DNA of 50,192 bases from a virus (taxonomy: Duplodnaviria; Caudoviricetes). The translations under genes were made by a program, and so were the position numbers. The stretch is taken from the IMG/VR virus record IMGVR_UViG_3300014613_000007, positions 1 to 50,192 of that record, one strand, 5' to 3'. Below the pieces are notes generated by a model. The model had not been told where the DNA came from and searched no databases. It worked only from the letters and a program-made list of their open reading frames with translations. Shown in pieces: positions 5,506 through 35,660 of this stretch. The first letter of the stretch is position 1, and every line of letters starts with the position of its first letter.

Positions 5506-5522
5506 TTAACACCTCAACAAAC

Positions 5523-7736: not shown

Positions 7737-9349
7737 TATTTAACTTCCTCAACAAGTGGCTCACCATCATCAAACCCAACAACATTCCATTTTTTTCCGC
7801 CTTTCCTTATCGTATCACCAATCTTGTATGGAGATTTTTCTTTCATATAGGGCTTTAATCCGGCAGTATAAGCGGCCTCGGTCCTTGAAAAAAACCGCGA
7901 CCATAAACCTTTCCCCTTAACAATATCTCCGGCAAGTTTTTCCTTTGCCGGAGCAAGAATGTCCTGTGTGATTTCTACTTTTTGTTTCGGAGTCATATCG
8001 GGTTTTTCACGAAATATCCGTCTTATTTCCTCCCGACGCGCCATGGATAAAACTTCGACATTGGCTAATTGTTCGGGAGTAGTATCCTCAGATATATCCA
8101 AGGTCTTTTTGTAATCAGTAGTAAATCTTCCTTCTGCTGCTAACGCATCTACCAACATCGGGTCGGTTACCTTAGTTCCAATCTTTCTTATATCATCGTT
8201 AATTTCATCATTATCGGAAGATGTAAATATCCATGCGTTATCCTGCCATAGCTTTTTAGCTTCTTCTTTTTTCCCAGCTTCTATCAAATCATATATATCA
8301 TTTCTCGTCTTTCCTCTTTCGAGTTGATCGCTTTCTTTTCCTGCATTTTTTACCTGACTATCAAGAAAATGCTGCAATTCCCTAACTTGCGCGGCATCCG
8401 TAAATGTCCCACTGTTTGCTGCCTGTATGATTTTAGCTTTAATTTGTGAGTAAGAAAGTCTTTGCTCGGAAGGAATATTTGTATCAGTAGATTTGATAAT
8501 GTCGTTACTAATCTCGATTTCAATAGCCTCGGCATGTGCTTTAGCTTCTTCTTTGGCTATCCTCTCGGTATTGGATTTTGCAGCCTGATAATCCTTTTTC
8601 AGTTCCGCTATCTCGTCCGGCCCGAAAAGAGGCTGGTCAAAATACTTATCAGCTCCGATTTTCTTCACGTATTCGTTGGGATGGTCGATGTAATAATTTT
8701 TCGTGACTGTTCCATCTTCATCAATTTTATCTGGATGCTGTCTGATATAATTGCCGATATGAAAACTGTAATCACTCTCCTGCTTTTCTTTATATTGCTC
8801 GGTAGTTTGCAAATCCTGTATATCGCCACTTTCCAATGCGGGCGACATTGTAAGATTAAACTGTATCAGAAAACGACCGAGATCTATTTCATTGTTAAAT
8901 TGCCTTTCCTTAGAGCGTTCAACTTTCCATGTCTTTATATTGACCTGATTATTTACAATATCCTGTTGCCGGGCTTGTTTTCTGACAGAATTTATACCAA
9001 GCTGTTTGGTAGCATCAAGCTGTCGTTCAAGTTCTTTTTTTGCCTTGCCATCCATATCTTCGAGAAGATAATCTTTATATTTAGGAAAAAAATCATTTAC
9101 ATAATAATCTTCTTTTTCCTGTGGTGACTTGCTCCTGTTCTCGTGTATCCAGGCATCAAATTCATCCTGCATTTTTAAGTTGCGAAATTCGGCCTGGGCT
9201 ATCTGAGAACTGTATCTCGACTTAGTTTCACCTTCCGAAATGTCCGCGCCAATCTCAAATAAAACATCGCCCGCCCTTTGAATTGCCGGGCCTACTTGAG
9301 AATATCTATATCTTGATCCGCCAAGTGCCATTATGCCATTGCCCCCCAC
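7736..9349 (-). CDS. Internal virion protein (T7 gp15-like position)
   Basis: 537-aa charged helical protein between the gp14-like gene and the large ejection genes. Confidence 0.55.
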   Translation of the reverse strand: MGGNGIMALGGSRYRYSQVGPAIQRAGDVLFEIGADISEGETKSRYSSQIAQAEFRNLKMQDEFDAWIHENRSKSPQEKEDYYVNDFFPKYKDYLLEDMDGKAKKELERQLDATKQLGINSVRKQARQQDIVNNQVNIKTWKVERSKERQFNNEIDLGRFLIQFNLTMSPALESGDIQDLQTTEQYKEKQESDYSFHIGNYIRQHPDKIDEDGTVTKNYYIDHPNEYVKKIGADKYFDQPLFGPDEIAELKKDYQAAKSNTERIAKEEAKAHAEAIEIEISNDIIKSTDTNIPSEQRLSYSQIKAKIIQAANSGTFTDAAQVRELQHFLDSQVKNAGKESDQLERGKTRNDIYDLIEAGKKEEAKKLWQDNAWIFTSSDNDEINDDIRKIGTKVTDPMLVDALAAEGRFTTDYKKTLDISEDTTPEQLANVEVLSMARREEIRRIFREKPDMTPKQKVEITQDILAPAKEKLAGDIVKGKGLWSRFFSRTEAAYTAGLKPYMKEKSPYKIGDTIRKGGKKWNVVGFDDGEPLVEEVK

Positions 9350-9795
9350 CAGCCTTCGCTTGTGCCCATAGTATAACTTTTACCCAATAAGCTTGCCCCC
9401 AATTCCCAATAGCTTGCTTCTTTTGCTTTTTTGCCCCTTCTTTTGAGCTCTTCAGCCTCCCTGGTTAGAGAGCTTACCTGATAAGAAGTTTCCATTCCTA
9501 TTTCCTTCATTCTTTCGGCGTAAGTATTTTCTATCATTCCTATAAGGGTATTTGCCGAGCCCGTTCCAACCTTAACACCGGACTTTGCAACAGTGGCCAT
9601 TGCCGAGCCTTTGGCAAAAGTAGATTCCCTTGCGAGCCCGTGGGTCTTTTCTCTTGCTACATCCTTAATATATCTAATCTGTAAAAGTCTCTGCTCGGCT
9701 TCCCACTTGGCCTGGCGTTCCTCTTCCTTACCGCCCATGATATTGCCGAATATATCAAGGCCCATACTGCCAAGCATCAAACCTAATCCTAACAT
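9331..9795 (-). CDS. Internal virion protein (T7 gp14-like)
   Basis: Gly-rich hydrophobic N-terminus, 'A.SGV..GTGSA' motif, position after the nozzle genes. Confidence 0.65.
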   Translation of the reverse strand: MLGLGLMLGSMGLDIFGNIMGGKEEERQAKWEAEQRLLQIRYIKDVAREKTHGLARESTFAKGSAMATVAKSGVKVGTGSANTLIGMIENTYAERMKEIGMETSYQVSSLTREAEELKRRGKKAKEASYWELGASLLGKSYTMGTSEGWWGAMA

Positions 9796-9804: not shown

Positions 9805-11664
9805 TTATTCTATAGTTATCAGCATTTTGGGATTTATCGAACGTATCGTCATTGGTATCGGCTTCCATAACCACAGATAAATAATCGGCTCTCTTGTAGT
9901 GCCCCATACGAAAGGCGCGGACTTTATCTCCTCTATCGGCGCTATTGCCGTAGCAAAATTATCGTAAGAGAACTTCCAGTCCACGCTATTATCTATAGAT
10001 ACCCCGATGTTACAACCCATCGACTCGTAAAAGTCTATCTTAACGTTCTGTATCCTGCTCTGAAAACCGGATGTGAGACTTGAGCCTGAACCTAAAATCA
10101 AAGGGAAGCTCTCGTAAATTGAGTAGTAGTTTATGCCCGCTATGATAACATCATATTTTTCGCCAAAGTCTATTACGTTAACACCATTAACATCTTCAGT
10201 GACAGTATAATTTCCTATTGGTCTGCCGTCGGCATATACGCAGACTTCCGTATTGGCAAGATGGTCTGCCGCTATCATGTTCGGTTCTATGCCTGGAATT
10301 GGCGGTATTGCCGGCACCGCCGGTGTGCCATCGTCCAGATAACTTATTTTTGCTATCTCTTCCCTGTATAAGAACGTACCGCCCGCAAAATTTGTCGTAT
10401 CGATCAAATTCAAATCCGTATCGTAACGATAGACAGTTGAGCCAAGCTCACTAATATTTGAGACAGCTATATTACCATCCCAATCGACCATTATCGCTGA
10501 AGTACCGCCAGTTGCATGAGCTATAACATTAAGTTCGGAATCGAATTTGATAACGTTATAACCGTCGCTACCTGTTCCTTTACATACATAATAATAACCG
10601 TCATGAACAATGACTCCCAGCGCATTTCCCGTATCCGTATAGCTATAAAGCGTAGCAAGGTTAGTGGGATTGAGAACGCGCACATTTTTACCCCATGGTG
10701 CAAGACCGACAATAATTACAACATTGTTAACACTATCGTAGACAATACTTCTTCCGTGCCCTACATTGTTCAAATTAACCAAAAGATTACCGTCCGAATC
10801 GTATTTACTTACAGTATAAGAACCTGTGCCTCGATACATGTAGATATTATCCTCGTCGTCGAGACAAAAAACCGATGCCCATACCATATCTTTATTCCAA
10901 ATTTCATCACCATTGGAAGTATTGAAAGCATAAAGTTTCCACGCAGTATCTACATATAGAACGGATTCATCATGGTTCAGTCTCACACAAGATATGACTT
11001 GGGGAAAACTGCCGGCATCGGGCACATAAAAAGTCTGATCCGGTGTAAGATTGATGTCGTAAACAACCACATAATAACCGGCCCCGACTATCGTTTTCGA
11101 GCCGTCGGCGGTCTGGGCTATCGTTGTGGTAACTACCGTTCCGGGCGAATCGGTATAACCAAGATAACTCCAATCCGGATCGAACCAGTAGAGATTGTCC
11201 GCATCCGAAATGATGTAAGCCTCGTCCCTAAAAGGAGCGGGCGGAACTTCGGGAACTTCGGGAATTTCAGGTATCTCGGCGACGCCATAAGAATTCACAT
11301 CTCCTATTCCGCAGTCCACGAACCAGCAGTAGTTAGGATCATCTCCCCAGTCCAAAGGCTGAAACTGCTCAATAAAGGTATAGTCATTACTGTCGATAGT
11401 CCTGTCAACTACCACCCAGACCTCATCGTCTAATCGAATATCGCCGCAAGCCTTTAGACTGCGCCCGGGTATTCTTGCCACGGACTTAAAATCGTCCCAC
11501 TGGTTCATATCGTTGACGTCCTGACCGGTTATATGCTCGGACCACGCCAGGACGTCGCCATCCTGAATATCAAGCCATGTGAGAATATTGTTCCTGTCCG
11601 TGCGCACTTGAGCTATAACAGCAAGACAAAAGAGGCTCCACGTTATCATTATTTTGTTAGTCAT
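9805..11664 (-). CDS. Second, partial nozzle (tail tubular B) paralog with inserted beta-propeller
   Basis: Shares WSxH.TG, IEQFQPL.W, FVDCG, GRPI, FY...GC, AP..WGT.R.P and P.PMTIR.IN with 11657-14215; Pro-rich linkers flank a beta-rich insert. Confidence 0.75.
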   Translation of the reverse strand: MTNKIMITWSLFCLAVIAQVRTDRNNILTWLDIQDGDVLAWSEHITGQDVNDMNQWDDFKSVARIPGRSLKACGDIRLDDEVWVVVDRTIDSNDYTFIEQFQPLDWGDDPNYCWFVDCGIGDVNSYGVAEIPEIPEVPEVPPAPFRDEAYIISDADNLYWFDPDWSYLGYTDSPGTVVTTTIAQTADGSKTIVGAGYYVVVYDINLTPDQTFYVPDAGSFPQVISCVRLNHDESVLYVDTAWKLYAFNTSNGDEIWNKDMVWASVFCLDDEDNIYMYRGTGSYTVSKYDSDGNLLVNLNNVGHGRSIVYDSVNNVVIIVGLAPWGKNVRVLNPTNLATLYSYTDTGNALGVIVHDGYYYVCKGTGSDGYNVIKFDSELNVIAHATGGTSAIMVDWDGNIAVSNISELGSTVYRYDTDLNLIDTTNFAGGTFLYREEIAKISYLDDGTPAVPAIPPIPGIEPNMIAADHLANTEVCVYADGRPIGNYTVTEDVNGVNVIDFGEKYDVIIAGINYYSIYESFPLILGSGSSLTSGFQSRIQNVKIDFYESMGCNIGVSIDNSVDWKFSYDNFATAIAPIEEIKSAPFVWGTTREPIIYLWLWKPIPMTIRSINPKMLITIE

Positions 11665-14215
11665 AATTTGCTGTAATCTTAGTGTTAATTTCCCGAATTG
11701 TCATTGGCACCGGCCCGGACTCCGAGAAGTACAATGTCGGCGCCCGCTTCGTGCCCCATATATAAGGTGCTGGCTTGTATCCGGTAACGGCATCTATAGT
11801 CGTGGCGAAACTGTCCTGAGAGAACTTGAAAGCAACGAGATTGTCCGCATCCGGGCCGATAGAACATCCTAAAGTCTTGTAGAAGTTTATGTTATTACTC
11901 ATTATCCTGCTCTGCTCTGCCAAAACGGGACCACTATTATCAAAAAGAACAATAGGCATAGTCTCATATACCGAAGTATAAGGAAGGCCCACTGTAAACT
12001 CGGTTAGGTTCGCATCTTCCGGATCGATACTGCCGTCCGAAACGACAAAGGTATTTATCGGCCTTCCGTTGGCAAATAAAGCGACCGTTTCTCCTTCAAG
12101 ATGTCCGAGATCGTTTATATCGTTCGTCCCGCAATCCACAAAATAACAATCGTTCTGGTCGGCTGGAGAAGATACCAAATGCCAGTTCAGAGGCTGGAAC
12201 TGCTCGATATATCCGACTGAAGTCGAATCTACAATTCTTCCAACTACAGCCCAAATCTCATCTTCCGTCGCGCCGGAAATACAGGCCGCCGACTCGAATT
12301 CGCCGGAAGCGCCCGTAGTATGCCTCGACCACGCAGCTACTCCGTTTCCTCTCTGATATGTAAAAGACAGGAGCACTCCATCTTCTCTAATACACCAGAG
12401 AACAGGGTCGGGCCGCTCCTGAAAGGCTATTTCCAGTATTCCATTACCGGTTATATGCTCGGCGAGAATAGTCATATCCGGTGCCGTGTATTTTTCGGTT
12501 GTAAACGTATAGGAAAGCTCCCTGACTTTCTGACCGCCGCGCTCGACGTAAAGAATCGCATCGTTGGCATTTGCCGGCTGGATATAAGCACAACCATTAT
12601 GGTTCTGGACCCTGTAAATAGGAGGATAATTCGGAGTAATAGGCTTGTTCGGCTGACCTAACTTGCCCACACCTTTAGTTGTGCCGACAAAAAGAAACTC
12701 ACCGGATTTTATCCATTGGATAGGATTCATTCCAGGCAGGGTATATACCCATGCGATATTATCAGGCCCGCCGAGATTGCCCGACCAATTACTTTCCGTA
12801 CTTTGGGTAAAGTCATCGTAATCTTCGTCTTTTTCCGCAATAATAGACGACCATACAGTTTGAGGATAACTTTTAGAGCCACCGTAAAGCACTCTTTGTT
12901 CATGGTGTTCTACCGTCCGGGGAAATCCCCTGTACGTGCTCCAAGCACCTTCCGCCCAGTAGTAAGTAGCATCCGTCCCGCCTAAATCGTAAACAACGTC
13001 GGCAGTCACATTGCATGGATCGGGTACTGTGGCTATTTCCACTACACCGTTATTAAGAAACTCTCGTAAAGCTATTGTGTAATAGCACCAGCCCAAATCA
13101 TCGTTACTGTATTCGAGGGCAAGATTATCTATATATATCCTGAGCCAGCAATCGGCTTCCGTTTCCTGCGCTGAAACCTGGATATTACCCCCGTACTGAA
13201 CGTATTGAGAATATACAGTCACCCATGTCGAAGTATCTTCCACCCATTTATTGGCTGCCAGATCGGTTGCAAACGTGCCCGAAGTATGGGCTTCGAGACA
13301 CCTGTAAGTCGAACGGCTGTCGGGATCGGCAGTTACATAATCGCCAATTACATAAGCTGTTTTAGTGGCCCATCTTGTTATTTCCGTATAAGACTTCTGG
13401 ACGTAGATAGTTCCTCTCCATATTCCTCCCGTAGTCACATCGTAATACCGCCATCTCTGGCATTTATTAGTCACCGAGCATTGAACATCTCCTTCCGAAC
13501 GGAAATAGCCGTGAATGGCACTATCACTTTCAAGCCAGTGACTTATCCTGAACAAAGCTCCAACGTGACCGTCATCGAATAACGGGTCGGTCGAGACAAT
13601 ATCTATGCCATCGCCCGTTGTCGCACTCGGCGTTAAAGTCCAGGTAGTATCATTGTTCTCATCAAGAAACGGACCGGTAGTCGAGCTTACGGCCGTGCAA
13701 GTCCAGTTGGCATCGTTGGTATCGTCCGGCCTTGTGAGCTTGTAAGGCTCATAATCGGGATGGACTATTCTCATCGTTCCGGCGTCCTGGACGTACTGAA
13801 GCTCGAAAACATCGTTGGCGTCCCATGGTGTGACTATCTCGTAAGGTTTACCCGAACCATTTGGCTCGTTTACGGGCGCTCCATCCGTAAAAAACCGGGC
13901 GTAGTCATCGCCTATTTCTATTATGTAAGCGTCCTCAGTCGAATACTCGAAGGAAATAAGTCTCGTAGGGTCGTTGGCATCTTTTACCGATGCGATATAC
14001 TTAGTGCCCGGCCTGCGGGTAATCGGGCCCTGCGTTCTTACCAGCATATTTTGAAGGGTCTTCGCACCGGATTTGTACTGTGGAAAGTCAACTCTCGAAT
14101 TCATCAATGGACTCAACTCACCGGCATTGAAAGAATTGAGCGTGACTTTCTGGGTCAGAGTGGCACCCATCGCCACCGTACAAAATATCGTTATCAAAAG
14201 TATCGGTTTTTTCAT
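11657..14215 (-). CDS. Tail tubular protein B / nozzle (T7 gp12/P22 gp10-like) with N-terminal signal peptide
   Basis: SFNAGELSP..R.D..QY..G...L.N.....G...RRPGT.Y, GFPRTV..H.QR, APDMTILAEHI, AWSRH motifs. Confidence 0.9.
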   Translation of the reverse strand: MKKPILLITIFCTVAMGATLTQKVTLNSFNAGELSPLMNSRVDFPQYKSGAKTLQNMLVRTQGPITRRPGTKYIASVKDANDPTRLISFEYSTEDAYIIEIGDDYARFFTDGAPVNEPNGSGKPYEIVTPWDANDVFELQYVQDAGTMRIVHPDYEPYKLTRPDDTNDANWTCTAVSSTTGPFLDENNDTTWTLTPSATTGDGIDIVSTDPLFDDGHVGALFRISHWLESDSAIHGYFRSEGDVQCSVTNKCQRWRYYDVTTGGIWRGTIYVQKSYTEITRWATKTAYVIGDYVTADPDSRSTYRCLEAHTSGTFATDLAANKWVEDTSTWVTVYSQYVQYGGNIQVSAQETEADCWLRIYIDNLALEYSNDDLGWCYYTIALREFLNNGVVEIATVPDPCNVTADVVYDLGGTDATYYWAEGAWSTYRGFPRTVEHHEQRVLYGGSKSYPQTVWSSIIAEKDEDYDDFTQSTESNWSGNLGGPDNIAWVYTLPGMNPIQWIKSGEFLFVGTTKGVGKLGQPNKPITPNYPPIYRVQNHNGCAYIQPANANDAILYVERGGQKVRELSYTFTTEKYTAPDMTILAEHITGNGILEIAFQERPDPVLWCIREDGVLLSFTYQRGNGVAAWSRHTTGASGEFESAACISGATEDEIWAVVGRIVDSTSVGYIEQFQPLNWHLVSSPADQNDCYFVDCGTNDINDLGHLEGETVALFANGRPINTFVVSDGSIDPEDANLTEFTVGLPYTSVYETMPIVLFDNSGPVLAEQSRIMSNNINFYKTLGCSIGPDADNLVAFKFSQDSFATTIDAVTGYKPAPYIWGTKRAPTLYFSESGPVPMTIREINTKITANYD

Positions 14216-15114
14216 GGCAACCTCAGATTTGCACTATTTGTGAATATTGAAACGCGGGGCGGTATGTACTTTCTGTCCTGCTGAATCGCCCTGAATCCCG
14301 GCCCGGCGAGCATCGCATATTCTTCGAGAAGTCTGCGCCTTTGTTCGTAGTCCTTTGCATCAAGCGCCATTTCAGCCGCGAGTCTTGTGCAGAAAGCGTT
14401 CTTAAACGATTCGGGATAATATAGAGGCTTGTCGGAAATCCCCGCCTGGACATAGGCAAGATATTCTATATATGCACTGTCAATACCGCCATCGACAGTC
14501 GTTGAAGGGTCGTTTGAATAATCGCTTGTAGCTAGAAGATTGCCGCTCTGAGAAGCTTTATAAGCCCAACTCTCTATCCAGGGCGCGCCTAACGTGCCGT
14601 CCTCATCGTAAAGAGTCCAGTATGTTTCCCAATTAGTACCTGTAATCGGCTCATCATCTGTTGTCGATGTATGTAATAATTTACAATAATAAGCCTGCTC
14701 GTCCGAACCTTCAACTACATGGGCGTAGTCATCGAAAGTCAAAACTTCGCAGTCATATTTTGTATTCCTGTCAATTTGGTTTATCTGGGCAACCAAGTCC
14801 AGAAAATCCGCCGGCAATCCAAAGAGTAATGACCAGTCCCTGATTTCTTTATTGATTCTTATCTCAGCGCCGAGGTCTGCGAATTGCCTGGCAAAATCGG
14901 GTTTCATGTCTGTGATGACCTGTTGAAGAATTTGCGGGTAAAGACAGCAGATAAGCTTCTTATCGTTCAAATTATCTGCAACAGTCGTGTAATCTGCAAA
15001 TTCTTCATCGGTGATAGAATCAAAAAATATTCCCGACTGAGAAGTCCTGCCCGCGACCAATATCGCCAACGTCCTGTTACATAAATGCCTTTTATACGGA
15101 TTGTCACCTGCCAT
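14212..15114 (-). CDS. Tail tubular protein A / adaptor (T7 gp11-like)
   Basis: LCNR.L N-terminus, LPADFL, F.NAF..RLAAEMA; directly upstream of the nozzle; carries a YYC..HTS...W..YW insert. Confidence 0.75.
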   Translation of the reverse strand: MAGDNPYKRHLCNRTLAILVAGRTSQSGIFFDSITDEEFADYTTVADNLNDKKLICCLYPQILQQVITDMKPDFARQFADLGAEIRINKEIRDWSLLFGLPADFLDLVAQINQIDRNTKYDCEVLTFDDYAHVVEGSDEQAYYCKLLHTSTTDDEPITGTNWETYWTLYDEDGTLGAPWIESWAYKASQSGNLLATSDYSNDPSTTVDGGIDSAYIEYLAYVQAGISDKPLYYPESFKNAFCTRLAAEMALDAKDYEQRRRLLEEYAMLAGPGFRAIQQDRKYIPPRVSIFTNSANLRLP

Positions 15115-15123
15115 AATATCTCC

Positions 15124-16062
15124 TTACGGATCTTCGTCATCTTCCCATTGTGTCAGGCCCGGATACTGCGTACCGCCTGCGCCCGGAGTATAGTTGATTC
15201 GGTATATAGGCCCATCTATCAGGCTTCTCCAGAACATCGCCTCGTAGTCGGTGCCGATAACGTGAACTACATCGCCCGCCGCCGGTGTGAAAGTGAATGG
15301 ACTTTGTACTCTTACGCTAACGTCCGTATCGTATTCCCAATCGACTATATATCTTAACTCGTAGTGGGAATCGTCGGCGTCCTCGACCATTATTATGTGC
15401 CACGTATAAACGCTGTTGGCGTCCGGCCCGGCCGTCAGAGTGAAGTTATTCGCATCGTTGGCATCCTTAACAGTAGTATCGAGCAAGGTCAGAAGGTCGG
15501 TCTTGTATTTGATGGCATCTATCAGAAGGTCGAGCCTTCCGCCATCCGTCCAGTCGGTTTGTAATTCATTAGAATCGGCCAGCACCAAAGTCAGATTCGG
15601 GTCGAGCCCGCCAACCTCCCCGCCGAAAGTCGTCTCGCCCGTATGGTCGGCAACGAGCTCGTCCCAGACATCTCCGGCAGTTATAGTCGCCGGTATCCAG
15701 ATCGTGCCGCTCCAGTCTCCGTACTCCTGCCAGACGGCCGGATCGGTATCGGCCGGACTGCCGCCCGCCTGCTGGTGGGTCACTATATAGTATTGACCCG
15801 CCCCGATGTTGGTGTCCATCGTCCCGACGAACATACCACCCAACTTGTCCGTCAAAGCAATATCATAATCCGCCGCCGTCCTTGCACCCGTTCCCCATGC
15901 CTCAAAGACCTCACCTGTAACGTACCAGACGTCACCATCTATCTCCCTAACCACCGAAAAGCACGTTGTAGCACCGGGACAGAACGCGCGTATTTCGCTC
16001 GCCGCCTCTATTTGGCCACAGAGAGTACAGAGAGCACAGAGATATATTATTGCCCGTTTCAT
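15124..16062 (-). CDS. Acidic virion-associated protein with signal peptide
   Basis: MKRAIIYLCALCTLCGQIEA-A; 'ELQTDW.DGGRLDLLIDAI' segment; inside the structural module. Confidence 0.6.
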   Translation of the reverse strand: MKRAIIYLCALCTLCGQIEAASEIRAFCPGATTCFSVVREIDGDVWYVTGEVFEAWGTGARTAADYDIALTDKLGGMFVGTMDTNIGAGQYYIVTHQQAGGSPADTDPAVWQEYGDWSGTIWIPATITAGDVWDELVADHTGETTFGGEVGGLDPNLTLVLADSNELQTDWTDGGRLDLLIDAIKYKTDLLTLLDTTVKDANDANNFTLTAGPDANSVYTWHIIMVEDADDSHYELRYIVDWEYDTDVSVRVQSPFTFTPAAGDVVHVIGTDYEAMFWRSLIDGPIYRINYTPGAGGTQYPGLTQWEDDEDP

Positions 16063-16448
16063 TGCACAACTCCATCGGGTACATTTACATCGACTATCGG
16101 AATTGCATCAATCGCAGCTTGGCGTAGTTCCGTTTTTACTTTTGTCTCGTAAGCTACAACAACATTCCGCAGCATTGTCGTTATGAACCTTTTGCCATAG
16201 TCAGCATGACCTTCTGCCGGTATCGAGTCTAAGCGGTAATCGACATCAAGAGAGAAGTCCGGCGCATTTGGATCGTTGGGGTCACGGCTGCCCTGAAAGT
16301 GAATTGAGACATGCGTATTCTCACAGGCCCGCAAAGCCTTTACTACCCTTGTCGTGTACTCATCGGGGATAGTGATTGTCAGTTGCACCGCCGCGAAAGC
16401 TATTGAGCATACTGCTGCTATGATTAAAACTGCTGCTAACTTTTTCAT
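16059..16448 (-). CDS. Exported protein in the structural module
   Basis: Start moved to MKKLAAVLIIAAVCSIAFA-A, which follows an AAGGAG RBS. Confidence 0.65.
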   Translation of the reverse strand: MKKLAAVLIIAAVCSIAFAAVQLTITIPDEYTTRVVKALRACENTHVSIHFQGSRDPNDPNAPDFSLDVDYRLDSIPAEGHADYGKRFITTMLRNVVVAYETKVKTELRQAAIDAIPIVDVNVPDGVVQ

Positions 16449-16458
16449 TTTATTCTCC

Positions 16459-17619
16459 TTATGGATAAGATTGACCATTACCATCGACCTCTACCCAATC
16501 CGTGCCGTCCCAGACTAATTCCAACCATTCTTTAGCCGTATCGAGCCTGATTACTTCCGGGTCGCTTGTAACGTGATTTGATACTGTTATATCAATATCG
16601 TTACCCGATGTTTTGCAAACGAACTTTACGCTCTGGCCTGTTTTCGTTCCCGCCGCCAGCGTACCCGTAATCCCCGCTCCCGATGAGTCGATGATATGAA
16701 GGCCGTAAGTATTAAAAGTCACTATATCCGCAGAAATATTGTTGACATCGTAAATGATCGTACTATTGACAAACTCAAGCCCTATAGAATCCCATTCACG
16801 TACTTGTGTCGGTGAATCGCCGTCATCACCATCGTTTATAAATCCTTTTTCCTGCCCCTTCTCATCGTCAGCCGCCCCATCGTGGGATACTTCTATTCGG
16901 GCTAAAGTAGTTTCCTCTCCTCCTGACTGCTCGCCTTTGAAGTTTAACTCCGATTCACGACCTCCATCCGTATCTTCGTGTGTTTCGTTGTGGATAGTGA
17001 GGCTTGGGTCAAGTCCCAAAAATTCCCCGACGCCACCTGCATTTAAGTTAAAAGTCCTTGTACCACCGGCTGTCATAAAAAAAGTGCCAGTAGAATGTTG
17101 ATACCCAATATTACCGATTGACCTTACGTTATCTGAAAAAATAAAACCCTGTGTTGTGTTCCCAGATAATCCAATAAAATTAACAAAAGCATCTCCATTA
17201 TTCTCTATCACAAGCAGGTCTTTAACCGTAGGAACACTCTGACCGGTTCCCAGTTTAATATGAACAGGTGCTAACGGAGCATCAGTCTGTATCCCAAGCC
17301 GATTATTCACAGTATCAAAGTTACCGATGACATTTCCATCTTGGTCTTTGACTTGAAAGAAAGTCGTGGAGTCTGTAGTAGGCTGAAGCACGCTTGAATT
17401 AAGTCCGAATATAGAGTTGCCTGTGGTCGTAAGTCCGGCAAAAGTCGGAGAATCGCCCGTTCCAAGCCCTAAAGTCGTCTGGGCCGCACCCTGTGTGGCG
17501 TCATCGAGCAATGTCCTGATATACACAGTCATATAGGGGCATATAGAGGAGCCGGCCCCCATGCCGAGCACCGCCCCGATAACGGCGCATATCAGTAAAA
17601 AACACGTAAGGCGTTTCAT
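16459..17619 (-). CDS. Tail fibre-like protein with signal peptide
   Basis: 'RTLLDDA....AQTTLGLGT.DSPTFAGL' and 'NRLGI.T.AP.A..H' fibre-type motifs. Confidence 0.65.
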   Translation of the reverse strand: MKRLTCFLLICAVIGAVLGMGAGSSICPYMTVYIRTLLDDATQGAAQTTLGLGTGDSPTFAGLTTTGNSIFGLNSSVLQPTTDSTTFFQVKDQDGNVIGNFDTVNNRLGIQTDAPLAPVHIKLGTGQSVPTVKDLLVIENNGDAFVNFIGLSGNTTQGFIFSDNVRSIGNIGYQHSTGTFFMTAGGTRTFNLNAGGVGEFLGLDPSLTIHNETHEDTDGGRESELNFKGEQSGGEETTLARIEVSHDGAADDEKGQEKGFINDGDDGDSPTQVREWDSIGLEFVNSTIIYDVNNISADIVTFNTYGLHIIDSSGAGITGTLAAGTKTGQSVKFVCKTSGNDIDITVSNHVTSDPEVIRLDTAKEWLELVWDGTDWVEVDGNGQSYP

Positions 17620-17621
17620 TT

Positions 17622-17993
17622 CTAATCCTCAATTAAAATGCGCACTTTGACAGTCAGGGTCTCGCCCGCACCTGCGGGTGCCGCCGATGGTGTTATAGAA
17701 ACTGTGACCAGTCCCATAACGGCAACGGGATTGAAATTGGCGTCCAATGTGCTTTTGTGGCTTTCAGAGAAATAAATATTATTCCCCGTTGCACAAGTCG
17801 CGCAGACTGCATCCGGGATAATAATACAACTATCGGCGTCCCTGAAAGTAACTGCCGCCGACGGCGTGCCCGTTACCGACGAAACAATAACGGTAAGACC
17901 GACAATTTTGCCCATAATTTCACCCGTTACCTGACTCTTGGCTGCATAACCTCCACCATAAGCCCACGTTTTTGTAATGGTTTGAACTTTCAT
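17622..17993 (-). CDS. Virion structural protein (beta-rich)
   Basis: 123 aa, Thr/Val/Ala-rich, AAGGAG RBS, structural module. Confidence 0.55.
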   Translation of the reverse strand: MKVQTITKTWAYGGGYAAKSQVTGEIMGKIVGLTVIVSSVTGTPSAAVTFRDADSCIIIPDAVCATCATGNNIYFSESHKSTLDANFNPVAVMGLVTVSITPSAAPAGAGETLTVKVRILIED

Positions 17994-18058
17994 TTTGTCT
18001 CCTTAAAAGGCTGAGGGGTCGGAGAAGGAAAACCATATCCGGCCCCCCGCCTTAAAAG

Positions 18059-18292
18059 TTATTTTGGAACTTCTGCTTTTTTGCTCAGCTCGGCAATTTC
18101 AAGCTGAACCTGCATAATGTCCCGCGTTAAAGACTTTTCAGCCTTCAGAACTTCCAGCTGACTTATTCTTGTCTGCAAAACGGACATCGCCTTTTTCTCC
18201 TGCTCTATCTTCAGAGCTTCGTCCGTCATTACAGATGTACAACCCGCTACCGCTACAAGCAATAGCACTACAATGGTTTTCCAACTTTTCAT
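18059..18292 (-). CDS. Small lipoprotein with coiled coil
   Basis: MKSWKTIVVLLLVAVAG-C lipobox; start moved to follow GAAAGGA. Confidence 0.65.
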   Translation of the reverse strand: MKSWKTIVVLLLVAVAGCTSVMTDEALKIEQEKKAMSVLQTRISQLEVLKAEKSLTRDIMQVQLEIAELSKKAEVPK

Positions 18293-18310
18293 AATTGTTC
18301 CTTTCACAAA

Positions 18311-21300
18311 TTAACCTTTACCATTCTGGTCGGCTGCATTATCAATCCAGGAGAGAAGCAGCCAGTTCGTGCCGTCGTACATCCATACCGTTACATCGCC
18401 CGATGCCGTTACAAGGTCGGTAGTACCCGCTATCAAAGCTCCGCCGTCAACGTCGTAGGTAATTGCGGCTTTCGATACCACGATAATAATCTGGCCTTCT
18501 TCAATATCCGTACCGTCAAAATCATCGATAGTATCGGCGTTGGTCCCGGTATTGAAATATGAGTACCCGGAAACATCAGGAGTGGCATCGTCCTGACCAA
18601 TTGTCTGTACGTCATTGACTGCCAAAGCAGCTTCTAATTTCAAAGGTTTGGCCGCTGTAACGGTCACACCGCCGGCACTTGACGTTAAATCAATGGCGGC
18701 AGCACTATTACCAAGAGTATTAGTGACTACGATGGTCTCGGAAGTTCCTACATTGGTCGTTAAGGCAATCGCCGAAGCAGCATTGTCCAAACTGTCAATA
18801 AGGACTTGACCGCCAGTAATAGCTACATTCTTAGCCAAAGCAGCGTTAATATCAACGCCACCGGCAACGGCCTGTAAGGAAATTGCAGCTTCGTCAGTTC
18901 CCGGTGTGTTTGTGAGCGTAATGTCGGCACTGGCGGCAGTTCCGCCCGTTACATTTACCGTGAACATTTCCTTGGCGTCAAGATCGATACCGCCCAGTGT
19001 TGCGTCGATATTGATAGCATCAGTTCCCGTACCGGCGCTATTTGTAATAGCAATCGTCTCAGCCGTACCTATATTCGTGGTCAAGCTGATTGCACCGGCA
19101 CCGGTTGTCTTACTCACAAGTGCAACACTACCACCTGCAATATTGATTTCCTTTGCCGCAGCAGCATCAATATCAACTCCACCAGCGGAAGACGTTAAGG
19201 CTATTGCCGCTGCATCCGTACCCGTAGAGTTTAGAAGGGTAATATCAGCACTTGCGGCAGTTCCGCCTGCTACGGTGACGGTAAACATCTCCTTGGAATT
19301 GATGTCAACTCCACCTGACGTCGAAGTTAGCACTATAGCACCATCGGCGGTGCCCGCCGCGTTGACTACTGAAATTATCTCAGTAGCAGCGGTGCCGTGC
19401 GGTGCAACCTGAACATAAGTATCGCCGCCTTCACTGCCAAGTTTCAAAGTGCTGCCATCATTTACAGTAGCATTGATACCACCGGCAAGTGCCGTCATGT
19501 TAATGGCCGTGGCGGCGGTACCATTCGTATTTACGATGTTTACATACTCCGTAGCCGGTGTGGCATGTGCCGCAACCTCAAAATAGGCATCCGCACCAGC
19601 ATTACCAAGTTTAAGACTTTTACCATCAGCTACTGACGCAGTAATACCGCCGGCTGTCGCTATAAGGCCAATAGCCGAAGCATTCGTACCGGCAGCAGAT
19701 TGAATAGTAAGCAAACTACCCGAAGACTGAGTTTCGATACGAATAGCATCGGCGGCACTCAATCCCGAAGTCAACGCAATACCGCCCGCCGGAGCGTAGA
19801 GCTGAATAGCGGCATCTTCTTCCGTAGTGGCAGAAGCGCCCGTACCCGTAGTGTTCTTGATCGTAATCAAGTCGCCGGCGGCACCGGCCGCATCAATGGT
19901 TATGGGGCCGCTGGCGGCATCTATATCAATACCGCCAACCGCAGCCGAAAGACTTATTTCACCATTAGCACCATCAGCTACGAGTGCAATTGCATCGGAG
20001 GCACTTTCGGTTCCGGTAATCAATACCCGGCCCGCCTGGGCATCAAGAATGATGTCCTTGGCGTCCGTATTGGTAATCGTTATATCCCCGGCAGTAGCCA
20101 ACATATTGATACCGGCGGTCCCGGCGTCAATATCAAGACCCCCGGCGGCATTTTCGGCGTCAATCACAACCGCGTCGGCAGCAGCCTGACCGCCGATAAG
20201 CTGGACCGAACCGGCGGCGGAATCAATGTGAATATCTTTCGCCGCGCCGCTGTTATCAATACCTATCGGACCGGCAACGTCAATATCCATACCGCCTGCA
20301 ACAGAGTCGATATTGATAGAGGCATCGTCAGTACCTACCATATTATTGATAACAATAGTCTCAAGTACGCCTGTATTGGTAATCAGCGATATGGCACTTG
20401 CCGCGCTTTGCTCGGATTCGATAAGAATCTGACCTGCATTCAGGGCAATGTCGGAAGTGATACCGGCATCAATATCTATACCACCGGTCGCGTCTACATT
20501 GATACCGTCAGCAGTAGTGTCGGTAGAAACTATATGGATTTGTCCCGCCGCATTGGATGTGTAAATCTTAACAGCATCATCGGCAGCTTCACTCGAAGTA
20601 ACGTTCACCGAACCGCCGGTATTGGCAATGGTAATATCCTCGGTAGCCGAGGCGGCATCACAAAGAATCTGAATACCGCCTAATGTAGCCTGGAGAACAA
20701 TCGCATCAACTTCATTCTCCGCAGAGGTCAATACGATACTCTTAGCTGTATCGACATCCAATCCGCCTGCCGTAGCGTTCAAATCGACCGCATCATCCCC
20801 GGTCCCGGCAGACGACAGAATCAAACTCGAAGCCGTCGCACCCGTAACGGAAATGGTAAGGTTTTCATCGGTTGCACCCGATACGACGGAGACGTTGGAA
20901 GCCGCAGCACCGTCGATACTGAAAGCACCGGTGGTATCAATCGCAATACCGGCAGTGCCCGAATCAATGTCCATACCACCTGCCGTCGCCGAAGCAATTA
21001 TAGTAACTGCCGCAGTATCGGCTTCACCGGCATCAAGAAAAATTGAGCCTGCCGCACTATCGACATCGAGATTGGCACCTGCTTCGCTAAGATCGATATA
21101 AATACTGCCGACGGAATCTATATCGATTTCATCCGCAGAAGCTACTTTAATATCTCCCGTGGCCGCAGATGTGATAAGACTTATAGCATCCCCGCCCGTA
21201 CCGTCCGAAGTAAGAATGATAGAGGCATTCTGGTCACCGTCAACTTCGATAGTAATATCGTCCCCGGCACCATCGGCTGTGGAGGTCATAGTAATTATGC

Positions 21301-22267
21301 CCCCTGCGGTATCGACATCAATACCTCCTGCCGTAGCATAAACCTTAATCGCATCATCTCCCGTACCGGCAGACCTCAAATCAAGGCTGGAATTATGAGC
21401 ACCGGTAACCTGAACGGTCAGGTCTTGGGCATCTCCACTTGCCGCAAGTGTTATCGTGGAAGCCGCCGCATCGAAGTAAACGTTTCCGATACCGGTAAGA
21501 TCATCGATAGTATCGAACGCAATTGAAGTAGCTCCGCTGTCGGACGAAAATGTAACAATGTTCGTGTTCGTACCGAGTCCGATACTGAAATCTTCCGTAG
21601 TGGCAGTCGGACTGTAGAACTCGAATTCAAGGTTGGTATCGTTCCTGATAGCTTCGCCGTTTTCGCTGAATACAAAGTCCGTAGAACCGACAATAAGGCC
21701 GGCAAAAGTACCTACACCGGCCTCGGAAATAGTCCAGGTATCGCCCGTTCCTGTAATATCATCGCCTGTACTGGAACCGTCAATCTGAATAGTCGGACCC
21801 GTTCCGGCGTTCGTTAATACCAGGCCGGGAGTACTTCCCGTATCGGACTGGACCAGAGTCAGAACGGCATTATTGGCCGCATCGGTAGCGGTCAATGTGA
21901 TCGAGCCGGCATCTACGGTTACGGCAGCTGAGATGCCATAGGCCGTATCGAGACTCGAAGCGCCCGCCACGTCTATCGACACCCAGGCGCTGCCATTGTA
22001 AAGCAGCAGGCCGTTAGAGGACTCATCGTAGTAAACCTCGCCTTCATTGGGCGTTGAAGGTTCCAAGCCGGGAACAAAGACAAAACTCGCCATACCGGTC
22101 GTTTCCGTCTCGGTCATAAACAGCCAGATAGGGTCTTGCTGGTAACTTCCTCCCAATATGTTCTGCTTGTGCTGGCGGTAATAATCCGCTCCGTAAGTCA
22201 TGGCGGCCTCGGCACTTGTGCAAAACAACAACACAAGCACCGAACAAAAAAGCAATATACGTTTCAT
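18311..22267 (-). CDS. Large acidic repetitive beta-solenoid-like protein with signal peptide (fibre or decoration candidate)
   Basis: 1318 aa; recurring 'A..AI.L.A.AGG.DID' units; very few K/R residues; follows the cement gene. Confidence 0.65.
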   Translation of the reverse strand: MKRILLFCSVLVLLFCTSAEAAMTYGADYYRQHKQNILGGSYQQDPIWLFMTETETTGMASFVFVPGLEPSTPNEGEVYYDESSNGLLLYNGSAWVSIDVAGASSLDTAYGISAAVTVDAGSITLTATDAANNAVLTLVQSDTGSTPGLVLTNAGTGPTIQIDGSSTGDDITGTGDTWTISEAGVGTFAGLIVGSTDFVFSENGEAIRNDTNLEFEFYSPTATTEDFSIGLGTNTNIVTFSSDSGATSIAFDTIDDLTGIGNVYFDAAASTITLAASGDAQDLTVQVTGAHNSSLDLRSAGTGDDAIKVYATAGGIDVDTAGGIITMTSTADGAGDDITIEVDGDQNASIILTSDGTGGDAISLITSAATGDIKVASADEIDIDSVGSIYIDLSEAGANLDVDSAAGSIFLDAGEADTAAVTIIASATAGGMDIDSGTAGIAIDTTGAFSIDGAAASNVSVVSGATDENLTISVTGATASSLILSSAGTGDDAVDLNATAGGLDVDTAKSIVLTSAENEVDAIVLQATLGGIQILCDAASATEDITIANTGGSVNVTSSEAADDAVKIYTSNAAGQIHIVSTDTTADGINVDATGGIDIDAGITSDIALNAGQILIESEQSAASAISLITNTGVLETIVINNMVGTDDASINIDSVAGGMDIDVAGPIGIDNSGAAKDIHIDSAAGSVQLIGGQAAADAVVIDAENAAGGLDIDAGTAGINMLATAGDITITNTDAKDIILDAQAGRVLITGTESASDAIALVADGANGEISLSAAVGGIDIDAASGPITIDAAGAAGDLITIKNTTGTGASATTEEDAAIQLYAPAGGIALTSGLSAADAIRIETQSSGSLLTIQSAAGTNASAIGLIATAGGITASVADGKSLKLGNAGADAYFEVAAHATPATEYVNIVNTNGTAATAINMTALAGGINATVNDGSTLKLGSEGGDTYVQVAPHGTAATEIISVVNAAGTADGAIVLTSTSGGVDINSKEMFTVTVAGGTAASADITLLNSTGTDAAAIALTSSAGGVDIDAAAAKEINIAGGSVALVSKTTGAGAISLTTNIGTAETIAITNSAGTGTDAINIDATLGGIDLDAKEMFTVNVTGGTAASADITLTNTPGTDEAAISLQAVAGGVDINAALAKNVAITGGQVLIDSLDNAASAIALTTNVGTSETIVVTNTLGNSAAAIDLTSSAGGVTVTAAKPLKLEAALAVNDVQTIGQDDATPDVSGYSYFNTGTNADTIDDFDGTDIEEGQIIIVVSKAAITYDVDGGALIAGTTDLVTASGDVTVWMYDGTNWLLLSWIDNAADQNGKG

Positions 22268-22313: not shown

Positions 22314-22793
22314 TTAAGATGGTTTAGTCACATTGGAACGAATGACTTGTACGTTGTCCTTTGTTCTGGGCTTGCTCGGACTCATCGCCGCATTGATAGA
22401 AACAGCAGCAGTACCGTTCACATCGGCAAGAGTTGAAATCATGCCGAGATAACGGTAAGTAGCATCGGCCGCTTCGGAAATCTGCTGGCCGACCTCCATG
22501 CAGGCAATGTTCCTTTCCACCGCCGCTATGCGCGGGTCTGCCGAGCCCGTTATGGCAACTCTGCATACGGAGCGAACGAGAGTATCCAGCGATTCAGTTG
22601 ACGAAACCACCAGGTCGAAAACGTAAGTGTCAGTAGTGCCGCCGGAATTTGCAGTCTCGCAAATAACGCTCCACCAAATATCCCCGTAGCCGACGTTTGG
22701 TATGACCTCAAGGTCGATAACATTCTCGCTATCGGTTGCACCGGCAGTAAGATCCTGTGCCGTTGAAAGCACACCTAATTCTTCAAGTATCAT
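22314..22793 (-). CDS. Capsid cement/decoration protein (Bbp16-like)
   Basis: 'AQDLTA...SENVIDL' start, RYLG motif, directly after the major capsid gene. Confidence 0.75.
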   Translation of the reverse strand: MILEELGVLSTAQDLTAGATDSENVIDLEVIPNVGYGDIWWSVICETANSGGTTDTYVFDLVVSSTESLDTLVRSVCRVAITGSADPRIAAVERNIACMEVGQQISEAADATYRYLGMISTLADVNGTAAVSINAAMSPSKPRTKDNVQVIRSNVTKPS

Positions 22794-25270: not shown

Positions 25271-25529
25271 TCCTTAAAGATAGGTTCCTTATTAATCCTG
25301 CCATCTCTACAAATAAATTTCTCGTTCCGGTCATCAGCATTCTCGCAACACCTTTGCGTAAATCCTTGCCATCCCCGCCTACCATAAACATCACATCCCT
25401 AACCATGTCATTGTGTAACACAACTTTCTCCTGGGTTTCGAGAATATCAAAAATCTTTTTGAGCTTTTCCGCCAAAAAGTCGTCGCCCGCCCTGTTATAT
25501 CCCTGAATTAGTATTTTTTTATCTCTCAT
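25239..25529 (-). CDS. Small head-module protein (Bbp19-like position)
   Basis: ATGA overlap with the portal stop codon. Confidence 0.55.
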   Translation of the reverse strand: MRDKKILIQGYNRAGDDFLAEKLKKIFDILETQEKVVLHNDMVRDVMFMVGGDGKDLRKGVARMLMTGTRNLFVEMAGLIRNLSLRNVENGTEKTE

Positions 25530-28195: not shown

Positions 28196-28819
28196 TCATT
28201 CCTCGACCTCGTTCGGACCAAATAAATCAATATTATCAAGATTGTCAAACATCCATTGAATATTCTCTCGGTTTATTGGGAAAGGATTTTTTCTTGAATG
28301 TTCTATTTTGCCAGCCAAAATCAACATTTTTAATTCTTGAAGAATTGGTTCGTTTGGCTCCACCCATTTTATAGCTACCGGCCCGTTCGGCTCACCATAT
28401 CGCATACATCCATAGAGACATTCCGGCAGAATTTCCAGGAACTTCTCCTTTGTAACATCGGCTACAACGATATTGCCCTCAACGTGAAAGCTTGCTGAGC
28501 TATTTGAGCTTATGCCAAACGTAAACGTCTTTTGCATAAAATAATTGTAATCAACAGTCAATCCTCCATCTGTTGTATTTACATCAACATCTTCTCCGAA
28601 TTTAATGTTGTTCGGATCGCTAGGCTCTATGAATGTGCAATGTCTCATCGTAAACATGGGTTCATTTGGCTCGTTCGGCTTCGACTCTTTATTCTGCCAT
28701 GAATCGGCGCAATAGTTAATAACATAAGCTACGCTACCACCCAATATTCCACCAATTATAAGGATGATACAATAAAAGAAAACTATCGCCGCATATGTCA
28801 ATATAAATTGTTTCGTCAT
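28196..28819 (-). CDS. Membrane-anchored protein with EPN/DPN repeats
   Basis: N-terminal TM segment, KPNEPNEP, DPNN, EPNG, EPNEP; AAGGA RBS. Confidence 0.65.
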   Translation of the reverse strand: MTKQFILTYAAIVFFYCIILIIGGILGGSVAYVINYCADSWQNKESKPNEPNEPMFTMRHCTFIEPSDPNNIKFGEDVDVNTTDGGLTVDYNYFMQKTFTFGISSNSSASFHVEGNIVVADVTKEKFLEILPECLYGCMRYGEPNGPVAIKWVEPNEPILQELKMLILAGKIEHSRKNPFPINRENIQWMFDNLDNIDLFGPNEVEE

Positions 28820-35659: not shown

Positions 35660-35660
35660 T

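Follow-up and report, generated by a model that had tools for sequence, protein, structure and literature searches.

Textbook accounts place the whole assembly of tailed phages in the cytoplasm, with proteins that carry no export signals, and in a literature search we found tail-tip formation outside the cytoplasm described for no tailed phage. Virion proteins with signal peptides are known from the Ff phages, whose coat proteins pIII and pVIII carry cleavable signal peptides and meet the genome at the membrane. Ff phages, however, are untailed, package no DNA into a cytoplasmic capsid and are extruded without lysis. Late phage proteins that use the host Sec pathway include signal-peptide and SAR endolysins, lambda Lom and Bor, and T5 Llp, some of which are encoded among tail genes. 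These lysis proteins and morons are not part of the virion, whereas in the genome analyzed here the signal-bearing products include the essential nozzle and anchor-bearing fibres.

The tail module described below resembles the T7-type tail (adaptor gp11, nozzle gp12, fibre gp17) in its homologous full-length nozzle, in the order adaptor, nozzle, internal virion protein, and in fibres whose N-terminal anchor is conserved and whose distal modules are swappable. The nearest cultured relatives are Pelagibacter phages with an HTVC010P-type tail tubular protein B, which shows 31-35% identity over 73-82% of the nozzle of the window (the whole 50,192-nt stretch of DNA analyzed). These alignments begin at residues 24-28 of the window nozzle, and the Pelagibacter phages lack a signal extension. 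No signal-type nozzle was found among these nearest isolates and three further GenBank records examined. In a PDB search the window nozzle matched 8CK1_A, 'Tail Nozzle' (E 9.2e-80, three aligned stretches), named in a figure legend as the gp44 nozzle of phage Carin-1 (PMC13730344). In the solved 8CK1 nozzle 15 residues precede the conserved motif, its residue 16 being aligned to window nozzle residue 28, and it is signal-less, whereas the window nozzle, its paralog and the fibres carry apparent Sec-type signals.

Signal-like N-termini in the tail module

The 50-kb window is a complete podophage genome. An N-terminus with the n-h-c layout of a signal peptide is encoded by seven of nine consecutive tail-module genes, namely those of the nozzle and its paralog, of four fibre-module proteins and of one lipobox protein. 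It is absent from the capsid, cement and portal-like proteins, from the adaptor and from the internal virion proteins. All ORFs named in a preliminary description of the window were found again, on the minus strand, as listed here with their neighbours.

25526..27307, minus strand: portal-like connector (phrog_332, E 3.3e-19); no signal
22827-23855, minus strand: major capsid protein (phrog_212, E 3.2e-13); no signal
22314-22793, minus strand: cement-like protein (Bbp16, E 1.2e-3, below the Pfam cut-off); no signal
18311..22267, minus strand: tail fibre or spike, 1318 aa; residues 1-21 signal-like, ending A-E-A
18059..18292, minus strand: putative lipoprotein precursor, 77 aa; V-A-G-C lipobox spanning residues 15-18 (numbered from the ATG at 18292)
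17622..17993, minus strand: predicted jelly-roll beta-sandwich, 123 aa (AF2 pLDDT 85); no signal
16459..17619, minus strand: fibre-like protein, 386 aa; hydrophobic N-terminus with an uncharged stretch of 20 residues
16059..16448, minus strand: 129-aa protein; textbook signal-like N-terminus ending A-F-A
15124..16062, minus strand: g312, 312 aa; signal-like N-terminus
14212..15114, minus strand: head-to-tail adaptor, gp11-like (phrog_394, E 2.5e-4); no signal
11657..14215, minus strand: nozzle, tail tubular protein B (phrog_376, E 5.9e-161); residues 1-17 signal-like
9805..11664, minus strand: paralog of the nozzle C-terminal third, 619 aa, with an insert of ~340 aa; weaker signal-like N-terminus
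9331..9795, minus strand: internal virion protein (phrog_418, E 3.6e-13); no signal

The adaptor lies upstream of the nozzle, its stop overlapping the nozzle start, and the phrog_418 protein lies downstream. Signals were called by a rule of our own making: an n-region with at least one K/R and zero D/E, a core of at least 8 uncharged residues with a mean Kyte-Doolittle hydropathy of at least 2.2, and a cleavage site at which -1 is small and -3 is small or aliphatic. The N-termini of 18311-22267, 16459-17619, 16059-16448, 15124-16062 and 11657-14215, earlier described as Sec-like, all pass this rule. So does 9805-11664, which had been called signal-bearing with a "probably"; its n-region contains a single K and the call is weaker. 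The proposed lipobox on 18059-18292 was borne out as a [LVI][ASTVI][GAS]C motif behind a hydrophobic region, and capsid, portal, cement and adaptor, which had been said to lack signals, all fail the rule, as do all internal virion proteins in 3712-9795. ORF calling and the rule are both crude. The background was taken from loci with signal-less nozzles: apart from the nozzle, they contain 1207 ORFs of 100 aa or more, and 43 of these pass (3.6%); in signal-nozzle loci the figure is 93 of 490 (19%). Shine-Dalgarno motifs were found ahead of the signal-including starts in the window. A twin-arginine (Tat) motif is absent: the n-regions in the window contain KK or KR, and those of most homologs KK or K. 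From their sequences, the window N-termini look like genuine Sec-type signals, six of them for signal peptidase I and one a lipoprotein signal. Paired cysteines are not evident in the window, since the mature signal-bearing proteins contain 1, 1, 2 and 2 Cys and the nozzle 13.

The 1318-aa protein has no Pfam or PHROGs match and no match among GenBank phages; its ESM Atlas neighbours are tail-fibre-like, which is a lead only. Behind the signal-like segment it has a conserved anchor domain of ~45 aa followed by divergent distal modules. All 18 full-length proteins with this anchor (17 distinct relatives plus the window) carry the signal directly before it. The 386-aa protein shares its N-terminal motif with the signal-bearing L004_5911 and L084_1430, and its 20-residue Gly/Ala-rich stretch could equally be a signal or a membrane anchor. 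The 129-aa protein starts at the 13th codon of its ORF, with TAAGGAG ahead of that ATG, and none of the loci retrieved yielded a homolog. The unsignalled 123-aa protein has as its best PDB match the trimeric cement protein of phage KHP40, a weak one (E 1e-3, TM 0.40); from its model it is possibly a second cement or decoration protein.

In 18059-18292 the mature part is a predicted coiled coil of ~60 aa with Lys at the end. No meaningful PDB or NCBIfam match was found for it. As a candidate spanin pair, 18059-18292 would be the outer-membrane subunit and 3344-3697 the inner-membrane one. The architectures fit (a lipoprotein and a type II membrane protein with a coiled coil), but the genes lie 14 kb apart, where adjacent or embedded ones would be expected, and the sole family match, of 18059-18292 to the Rz-like spanin phrog_214, is weak (E 0.0096). 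Pfam, PHROGs and NCBIfam gave nothing above threshold for the other module proteins and the candidate lysis genes. The ORFs scanned in the window included no recognisable endolysin or holin.

Distribution of the signals across relatives

A single-protein scan of viral contigs found no close relatives, and a profile scan then succeeded. Of 8000 candidates scored, 1901 are nozzle homologs with an E of 1e-10 or lower. The phrog_376 profile (positions 5-710 of 712) matches window nozzle residues 23-850, residues 1-22 are an extension ahead of it, and the conserved family motif begins at residue 28. The preliminary description had asked whether nozzle homologs keep this extension, and most do: among the best 120, the strict signal rule is passed by 99, and 106 have at least 18 residues ahead of the motif. 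In those 106 the n-region has a median of 3 residues, 2 K/R and 0 D/E. The hydrophobic core, with a median of 11 residues (IQR 9-16; up to 24 in some), fits a signal peptide, whose h-region has about 7-15 residues, and not a transmembrane anchor; the 386-aa window protein is an outlier at 20. At the best cleavage site, A occupies position -1 in 62 sequences and G in the other 44, and position -3 is A in 55, V in 17, L in 12, T in 9, S in 5 and C in 5; since the site was chosen by the -1/-3 criterion, these counts show availability and not use. The signal sequences themselves are unconserved though the mature nozzles are 33-64% identical, and what is kept are the physico-chemical properties.

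In a nozzle tree computed without the signal columns, all 40 signal-bearing nozzles fall inside one well-supported clade of 49 rows, and 93 nozzles in the tree are signal-less. The signal state changes 8 times on this tree versus a mean of 34.5 with shuffled labels. Signal-type nozzles have 7.7 Cys versus 4.95 in the others, a modest difference with no excess of even counts. Co-occurrence of Cys columns across nozzles was considered as a sign of periplasmic folding and set aside because it is confounded by phylogeny.

The tally of gene families covers 50 loci of the clade. Signal-positive members number 0/8 for the putative terminase, 0/25 for the portal, 0/33 for a scaffold-like family, 0/16 for cement, 1/45 for the internal virion protein, 0/11 and 0/7 for two ejection-protein families and 0/13 for the 123-aa family. 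One capsid of 25 is positive, in an upstream ORF extension, and looks false. The adaptor is signal-positive in 0/49 clade loci and 0/98 elsewhere (median length 245 aa in the clade vs 197 aa elsewhere). Signals are confined to tail parts beyond the adaptor.

Within those parts the pattern is nested. Where at least 6 kb upstream was available, 33 of 34 signal-nozzle loci also encode a signal-bearing upstream ORF, and in the 34th (L052) such an ORF was recognised by eye. Signals on the fibre with none on the nozzle occur in L078, L081, L061/L062 and L144. Thus a nozzle signal is always accompanied by a fibre signal and the reverse is not so, so that the putatively exported set in every case corresponds to the distal end of the order in which podophages are known to assemble.

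Two further module proteins were examined in relatives. In the 619-aa paralog, residues 24-130 and 468-614 align to nozzle residues 611-707 and 705-847. Its hydrophobic segment was considered as the nozzle strand preceding residue 611, and this was ruled out because in three orthologs the N-terminus ahead of the conserved motif is hydrophobic but divergent, and in one of them (L006) it is a clear signal. The N-terminal domain of g312 (~95 aa) is free-standing with a signal in the window, L004, L084 and L026, and in two relatives (L059, L008) it is fused to the adaptor without one. The adaptor-fused form begins at the column of the predicted mature N-terminus, that is, at the predicted cleavage site. 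To judge from these alignments, the signal behaves as a separable module, present on free g312 and gone upon adaptor fusion. The fusion links g312 to the adaptor, and it also means that the g312 domain evidently works when made in the cytoplasm.

Contigs of the signal clade are found in MAG bins assigned to Pirellulales, Phycisphaerae, Thermoguttaceae, Desulfobacterales, Anaerolineaceae and Neomarinimicrobiota, and all are phage-sized. The sister clade occurs in PVC genomes, including isolates and large contigs. Among 401 Planctomycetota genomes, 12 contain a nozzle homolog, and of the 7 loci with a readable N-terminus only L084 is signal-positive.

Export and its alternatives

The signals are neither chance nor miscalled starts. 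An artefact is very improbable: the window nozzle does have a downstream in-frame Met (codon 16), and our calls are crude as stated above, but the signal is retained by most of the best homologs and by most members of the well-supported tree clade, Shine-Dalgarno motifs precede the upstream starts, and the control loci give a low background. The same conservation and Shine-Dalgarno placement exclude that the true starts lie downstream, which the preliminary description had named as a possible refutation. The codon-16 Met also bears on a dual use of these proteins, in which an exported pool would act outside the virion (in receptor masking or destruction, as a lysis aid or in superinfection exclusion) while the virions would draw on a fraction that is not exported or on an isoform without the signal. 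Tail modules are indeed known to hold signal-bearing genes for proteins outside the virion, e.g., lambda lom and bor and T5 llp. However, that Met is L or I in most homologs, and an internal start preceded by a Shine-Dalgarno motif that could give a signal-less isoform is present in only 1 of 37 distinct signal-nozzle genes. No role for a nozzle hexamer outside the virion is evident, and dual use does not predict the nested fibre-then-nozzle pattern; we consider it unlikely.

Two other explanations do not appear probable to us either. The N-termini could be docking helices, or elements that insert into the membrane during infection, on a particle made entirely in the cytoplasm. This would keep the textbook assembly route, and since in T7-type tails the N-termini of nozzle and fibres are located close to where adaptor and nozzle meet, they could bundle there. 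But a structural helix is expected to be conserved in sequence and these N-termini are not; the (-3,-1) pattern and basic n-region have no docking role; 8CK1 and the signal-less nozzles of the tree do without the segment; and unrelated small module proteins (129 aa, 312 aa) carry it too. The g312 N-terminus is also modelled at AF2 pLDDT 37, although the whole model is poor (overall pLDDT 47). The second explanation is that uncleaved or late-cleaved signal anchors hold nozzle and fibres on the periplasmic face of the inner membrane, which would serve as a platform for assembly, with cleavage or release only at lysis, and its chances seem similarly low. The Gly/Ala-rich stretch of the 386-aa protein is long enough to span a membrane, some homolog cores reach 24 residues, and one module protein, as a lipoprotein, would be membrane-bound by design. 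Against such tethering, a core of median length would not reach far enough to anchor stably, all 106 sequences offer A or G at -1 together with a small or aliphatic -3 residue, and the start of adaptor-fused g312 exactly at the predicted cleavage site fits a removable presequence.

We favour export via Sec, with the distal tail joining adaptor-capped heads at an inner-membrane breach, and put its probability at about 0.5. It had been suggested from the window that tail parts are exported or membrane-tethered and join heads at or beyond the inner membrane. The export part is supported by signals that look genuine, are unconserved and modular, and are limited to parts beyond the adaptor; the joining with heads is hypothetical.

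A possible assembly route and its meaning

From these features we infer export, cleavage, periplasmic assembly and late joining. In the proposed route, every part distal to the adaptor (nozzle, paralog, fibres or spikes, accessory proteins) would cross the inner membrane via Sec; by the positive-inside rule, under which charges N-terminal to the core predict translocation of the mature part, the positive n-regions predict that the mature proteins are translocated. The exported parts would be cleaved and folded, and probably pre-assembled, in the periplasm. Heads in the cytoplasm would be DNA-filled, with the portal and the signal-less adaptor as their cap. Only a breach of the inner membrane at lysis would bring the two halves together, and joining would then be spontaneous, as it is for P22 tailspikes and lambda tails in vitro. 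In model podophages the nozzle helps to retain the DNA, so heads capped by the adaptor only would have to hold their DNA until lysis. With no endolysin or holin recognised, the lysis step of this model is not anchored in the genome.

Were the DNA-gating nozzle made in the periplasm, head-tail joining would have to take place at or after membrane disruption, DNA-filled heads would have to be stable without a nozzle, and lysis timing would become part of morphogenesis. We extend this to the whole deep clade more tentatively, at somewhat short of even odds: it may have a two-compartment morphogenesis, with cytoplasmic adaptor-capped heads and a Sec-exported periplasmic distal tail that become infectious only at inner-membrane breach, and the nested pattern would then record stepwise evolution along the assembly order. 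In annotation, a signal-bearing gene of a tail module tends to be taken by pipelines for a moron or a host-like surface protein. In engineering, the expression of receptor-binding proteins with periplasmic folding may call for oxidative or envelope factors. Since the clade is large and most of the best-scoring nozzle homologs bear the signal, this behaviour would be common in nature and absent from the cultured models.

Signal-like N-termini in the tail module

The window is 50,192 bp long with direct terminal repeats and is rated 100% complete in the IMG/VR virus record. Nearly all of its genes are on the minus strand and no tRNA genes were found in it. The virion genes, with family assignments in brackets, are as follows.

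29150-30769, minus: 539-aa protein, putative terminase by position only (phrog_5902)
25526-27307, minus: portal-like connector, 593 aa (phrog_332)
22827-23855, minus: major capsid protein, 342 aa (phrog_212)
22314-22793, minus: cement-like protein, 159 aa (Bbp16, below Pfam's cut-off)
18311-22267, minus: 1318-aa protein (no family match)
18059-18292, minus: 77-aa lipobox protein (no family match above threshold)
17622-17993, minus: 123-aa protein (no family match)
16459-17619, minus: 386-aa protein (no family match)
16059-16448, minus: 129-aa protein (no family match)
15124-16062, minus: 312-aa protein, g312 (no family match)
14212-15114, minus: head-to-tail adaptor, 300 aa (phrog_394)
11657-14215, minus: nozzle (tail tubular protein B), 852 aa (phrog_376, E 5.9e-161)
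9805-11664, minus: paralog of the nozzle's C-terminal third, 619 aa (alignment to the nozzle)
9331-9795, minus: internal virion protein, 154 aa (phrog_418)
3712-9349, minus: three large proteins, presumably ejection proteins (no family match)

The Sec-like N-termini claimed for tail-module proteins in the preliminary description are present in the translations. Of all ORFs, a hydropathy scan picks out these and no others: nozzle, nozzle paralog, the 312-, 386- and 1318-aa proteins, the 77-aa lipobox protein and the 129-aa protein (from its 13th codon). Applying a stricter n-h-c rule gives an identical result. Capsid, portal, cement and adaptor, described as lacking signals, are indeed negative by scan and rule, as are the internal virion proteins. 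Two calls are softer: the n-region of the paralog has one Lys only, and the hydrophobic stretch of the 386-aa protein, 20 residues rich in Gly and Ala, could instead serve as an anchor. SD motifs (AAGGAG, GAGG) lie upstream of the signal-including starts, and TAAGGAG precedes the 13th-codon ATG of the 129-aa gene. The stop of the adaptor gene overlaps the start of the nozzle gene. Alignment to the phrog_376 profile starts only at nozzle residue 23, which leaves residues 1-22 as an addition outside the family core. The Tat route was rejected, the n-regions being KK or KR.

Elsewhere in the window, between the putative terminase and portal-like genes, lies a gene (28196-28819, minus) for a 207-aa protein whose N-terminus forms a long hydrophobic anchor; the protein matched no Pfam, PHROGs or NCBIfam family. 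The stretch 31500-36000 alone has plus-strand ORFs and reversed GC skew; it probably has an early or regulatory function, with divergent transcription units on either side. Replication and DNA-modification genes are found at 125-1379, 36056-37027, 39259-39711, 40553-41440 and 43239-44324 (all minus): replication initiation protein (phrog_154), phrog_6247 (PHROG label DNA topoisomerase), AAA ATPase, NinG, N6/N4 DNA methylase and DUF5131.

Nozzle homologs, their clade and host clues

In a search of about 5.8 billion proteins, 8000 candidates were scored, among which 1901 were nozzle homologs at E 1e-10 or better. The extension is kept by relatives: 99 of the 120 best homologs (33-64% identical) passed the strict rule. 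Nine of the 21 failures look like signals by eye, the rule having been broken by an acidic n-region residue or a lack of K/R there; the others were four N-terminal fragments, two ORFs starting inside the signal and six proteins truly without it. The properties of the signal are kept while its sequence is not conserved. Among 106 homologs with at least 18 residues ahead of the motif, the n-region has medians of 3 residues, 2 K/R and 0 D/E, and the hydrophobic core a median length of 11 residues (IQR 9-16). All 106 offer A or G at -1, a count of availability and not of use because the cleavage site was chosen by that criterion. Judged on these translations, neither chance nor a miscalled start accounts for the signals.

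We fetched 160 related loci (L-numbers below), and the N-terminal part of the nozzle was readable in 144: 42 signal-type (one, L163, a false positive by eye), 100 not, and 2 truncated. FastTree was run on 133 distinct nozzle sequences (600 aa or longer) from which the signal columns had been removed. All 40 signal-type rows (40/40) fall within one 49-row clade with 98% support, and the signal state requires 8 changes on the tree vs. a mean of 34.5 for shuffled labels. The nine exceptions in the clade comprise a rule miss (L026), two ORFs starting inside the signal (L039 and L041) and six nozzles truly without it. The sister clade (13 rows) has no signals; it occurs in genomes of Lentisphaerota, Verrucomicrobiota and Pirellulaceae, isolates and 86-206 kb contigs among them.

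Bins labelled Pirellulales, Phycisphaerae, Thermoguttaceae, Desulfobacterales, Anaerolineaceae and Neomarinimicrobiota contain contigs of the signal-nozzle clade, but only phage-sized ones. A nozzle homolog was found in 12 of 401 Planctomycetota genomes, and the chromosomal homologs with a readable N-terminus (6 loci) all lack the signal. Five on Planctomycetota chromosomes (L169, L170, L174-L176) are probably prophages, since they lie at megabase positions on large contigs. From the strength of the AAGGAG motifs, the host would be one with Shine-Dalgarno initiation.

Virion parts with and without signals

Signal-like N-termini are found on 93/490 other ORFs (same strand, at least 100 aa) in signal-nozzle loci vs. 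43/1207 in the remaining loci. Profile families were built from the window proteins and signal calls tallied in 50 clade loci. No positives were found in the families of the putative terminase (0/8), portal (0/25), scaffold-like protein (0/33), cement (0/16), 123-aa protein (0/13) and two ejection proteins (0/11 and 0/7), nor in the adaptor family (0/49 in the clade, 0/98 outside). The capsid family has one (1/25), an upstream ORF extension that is false by eye, and the internal virion protein family one (1/45).

A fibre family was defined by the anchor domain at the N-terminus of the 1318-aa protein. In all 17 of 17 full-length distinct relatives, and in the window protein, a textbook signal lies directly ahead of a conserved domain of about 45 aa, beyond which the sequences split into unrelated modules. 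Podophage fibres and spikes are usually built this way, with a conserved N-terminus that binds the particle and distal parts that can be swapped. Among signal-nozzle loci with at least 6 kb upstream, 33/34 carry a signal on one or more upstream ORFs, as does, judged by eye, the remaining one (L052). L078, L081, L061/L062 and L144 have a fibre with the signal and a nozzle without. By these counts, the parts with signals always make up the distal end in the order of podophage assembly. As called from the translations, either the fibres alone carry them or both fibres and nozzle do, and the adaptor never does.

In the window, L004, L084 and L026, g312 is a protein of its own and bears the signal. 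In L059 (9063-10022) and L008 (8706-9944) the adaptor's own N-terminus is the g312 N-terminal domain without a signal: L059 residues 11-105 match g312 residues 29-120 (41% identity, E 1e-18), and residues 170-300 match the window adaptor. In the alignment, the first column of the fused forms coincides with the predicted mature N-terminus, which argues that the signal is a separable presequence; the tie to the adaptor makes g312 a virion part. It was concluded that the signals are real, ancient within the clade, modular and limited to parts beyond the adaptor.

The signal-less 123-aa protein (17622-17993, minus) is kept in 12 clade loci; it is predicted to be a jelly-roll sandwich (pLDDT 85), and its best PDB match, a weak one, is the trimeric cement protein of phage KHP40. 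The lipoprotein (18059-18292, minus), mostly predicted coiled coil with Lys at its end, is reminiscent of Braun's lipoprotein. A 117-aa protein (3344-3697, minus), 14 kb away, resembles an inner-membrane spanin subunit in its N-terminal membrane anchor and the coiled coil behind it. Scanning 20 further window ORFs revealed no recognisable endolysin or holin.

The paralog (9805-11664, minus) is a second nozzle-like gene directly after the nozzle, an order shared by its orthologs in L004, L005 and L006. Two segments of it, residues 24-130 and 468-614, align with nozzle residues 611-707 and 705-847 (38-40% identity) on either side of an insert of about 340 aa. By analogy with the 'split nozzle' reported for phage A1002 (PMC13730344), it may extend or split the nozzle.

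A possible two-compartment assembly

The preliminary description took the signals to mean that tail parts are exported or membrane-tethered and join heads at or beyond the inner membrane. The signals themselves are confirmed, and this reading is supported in part; export we still infer. The most likely mechanism, at a probability of about 50%, is that the distal tail would be exported through Sec and would join adaptor-capped heads late. Counted against export, the mature signal-bearing window proteins have 1, 1, 2, 2, 8 and 13 Cys with no clear pairing. Signal-type nozzles average 7.7 Cys vs. 4.95, with no excess of even counts, and Cys-column correlations are confounded by relatedness. The adaptor ORF median is 245 aa (n = 50) in the signal clade vs. 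197 aa (n = 97) elsewhere among the fetched loci, although some lengths may be over-extended because the longest ORFs were used. The longer adaptors may relate to holding DNA before the nozzle arrives.

Assembly on parts tethered to the membrane seems improbable, and we give an equally low weight to a purely cytoplasmic, structural role of the N-termini. A structural helix leaves the sequence variability and the (-3,-1) pattern unexplained, as well as the same feature on unrelated small proteins. Dual use is no likelier. A signal-less isoform from an internal start finds little in the 37 distinct signal-nozzle genes: an SD-like motif precedes the signal start in 21, and a later in-frame ATG, GTG or TTG lies within the signal in 24, of which one is SD-preceded (1/37 overall). 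Most homologs have L or I where the window nozzle has its codon-16 Met. An artefact is very hard to credit.

The closest solved structure to the window nozzle is 8CK1 'Tail Nozzle' (E 9e-80), which a figure legend in PMC13730344 gives as gp44 of phage Carin-1; it lacks the signal, since its residue 16 aligns with query residue 28. Alignments to the nearest cultured relatives, Pelagibacter phages, start at window nozzle residues 24-28, and in three GenBank records inspected the nozzle has no signal. In the accessible portions of the literature that pairs signal peptides with tail proteins, the periplasm and virion assembly (including PMC3556154 and PMC13704836), and of that on Planctomycetes phages, no description of exported tail parts was found. 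What combines here is a T7-type tail and ordinary signal peptides, each known. If shown, two-compartment assembly would be a new morphogenetic route.
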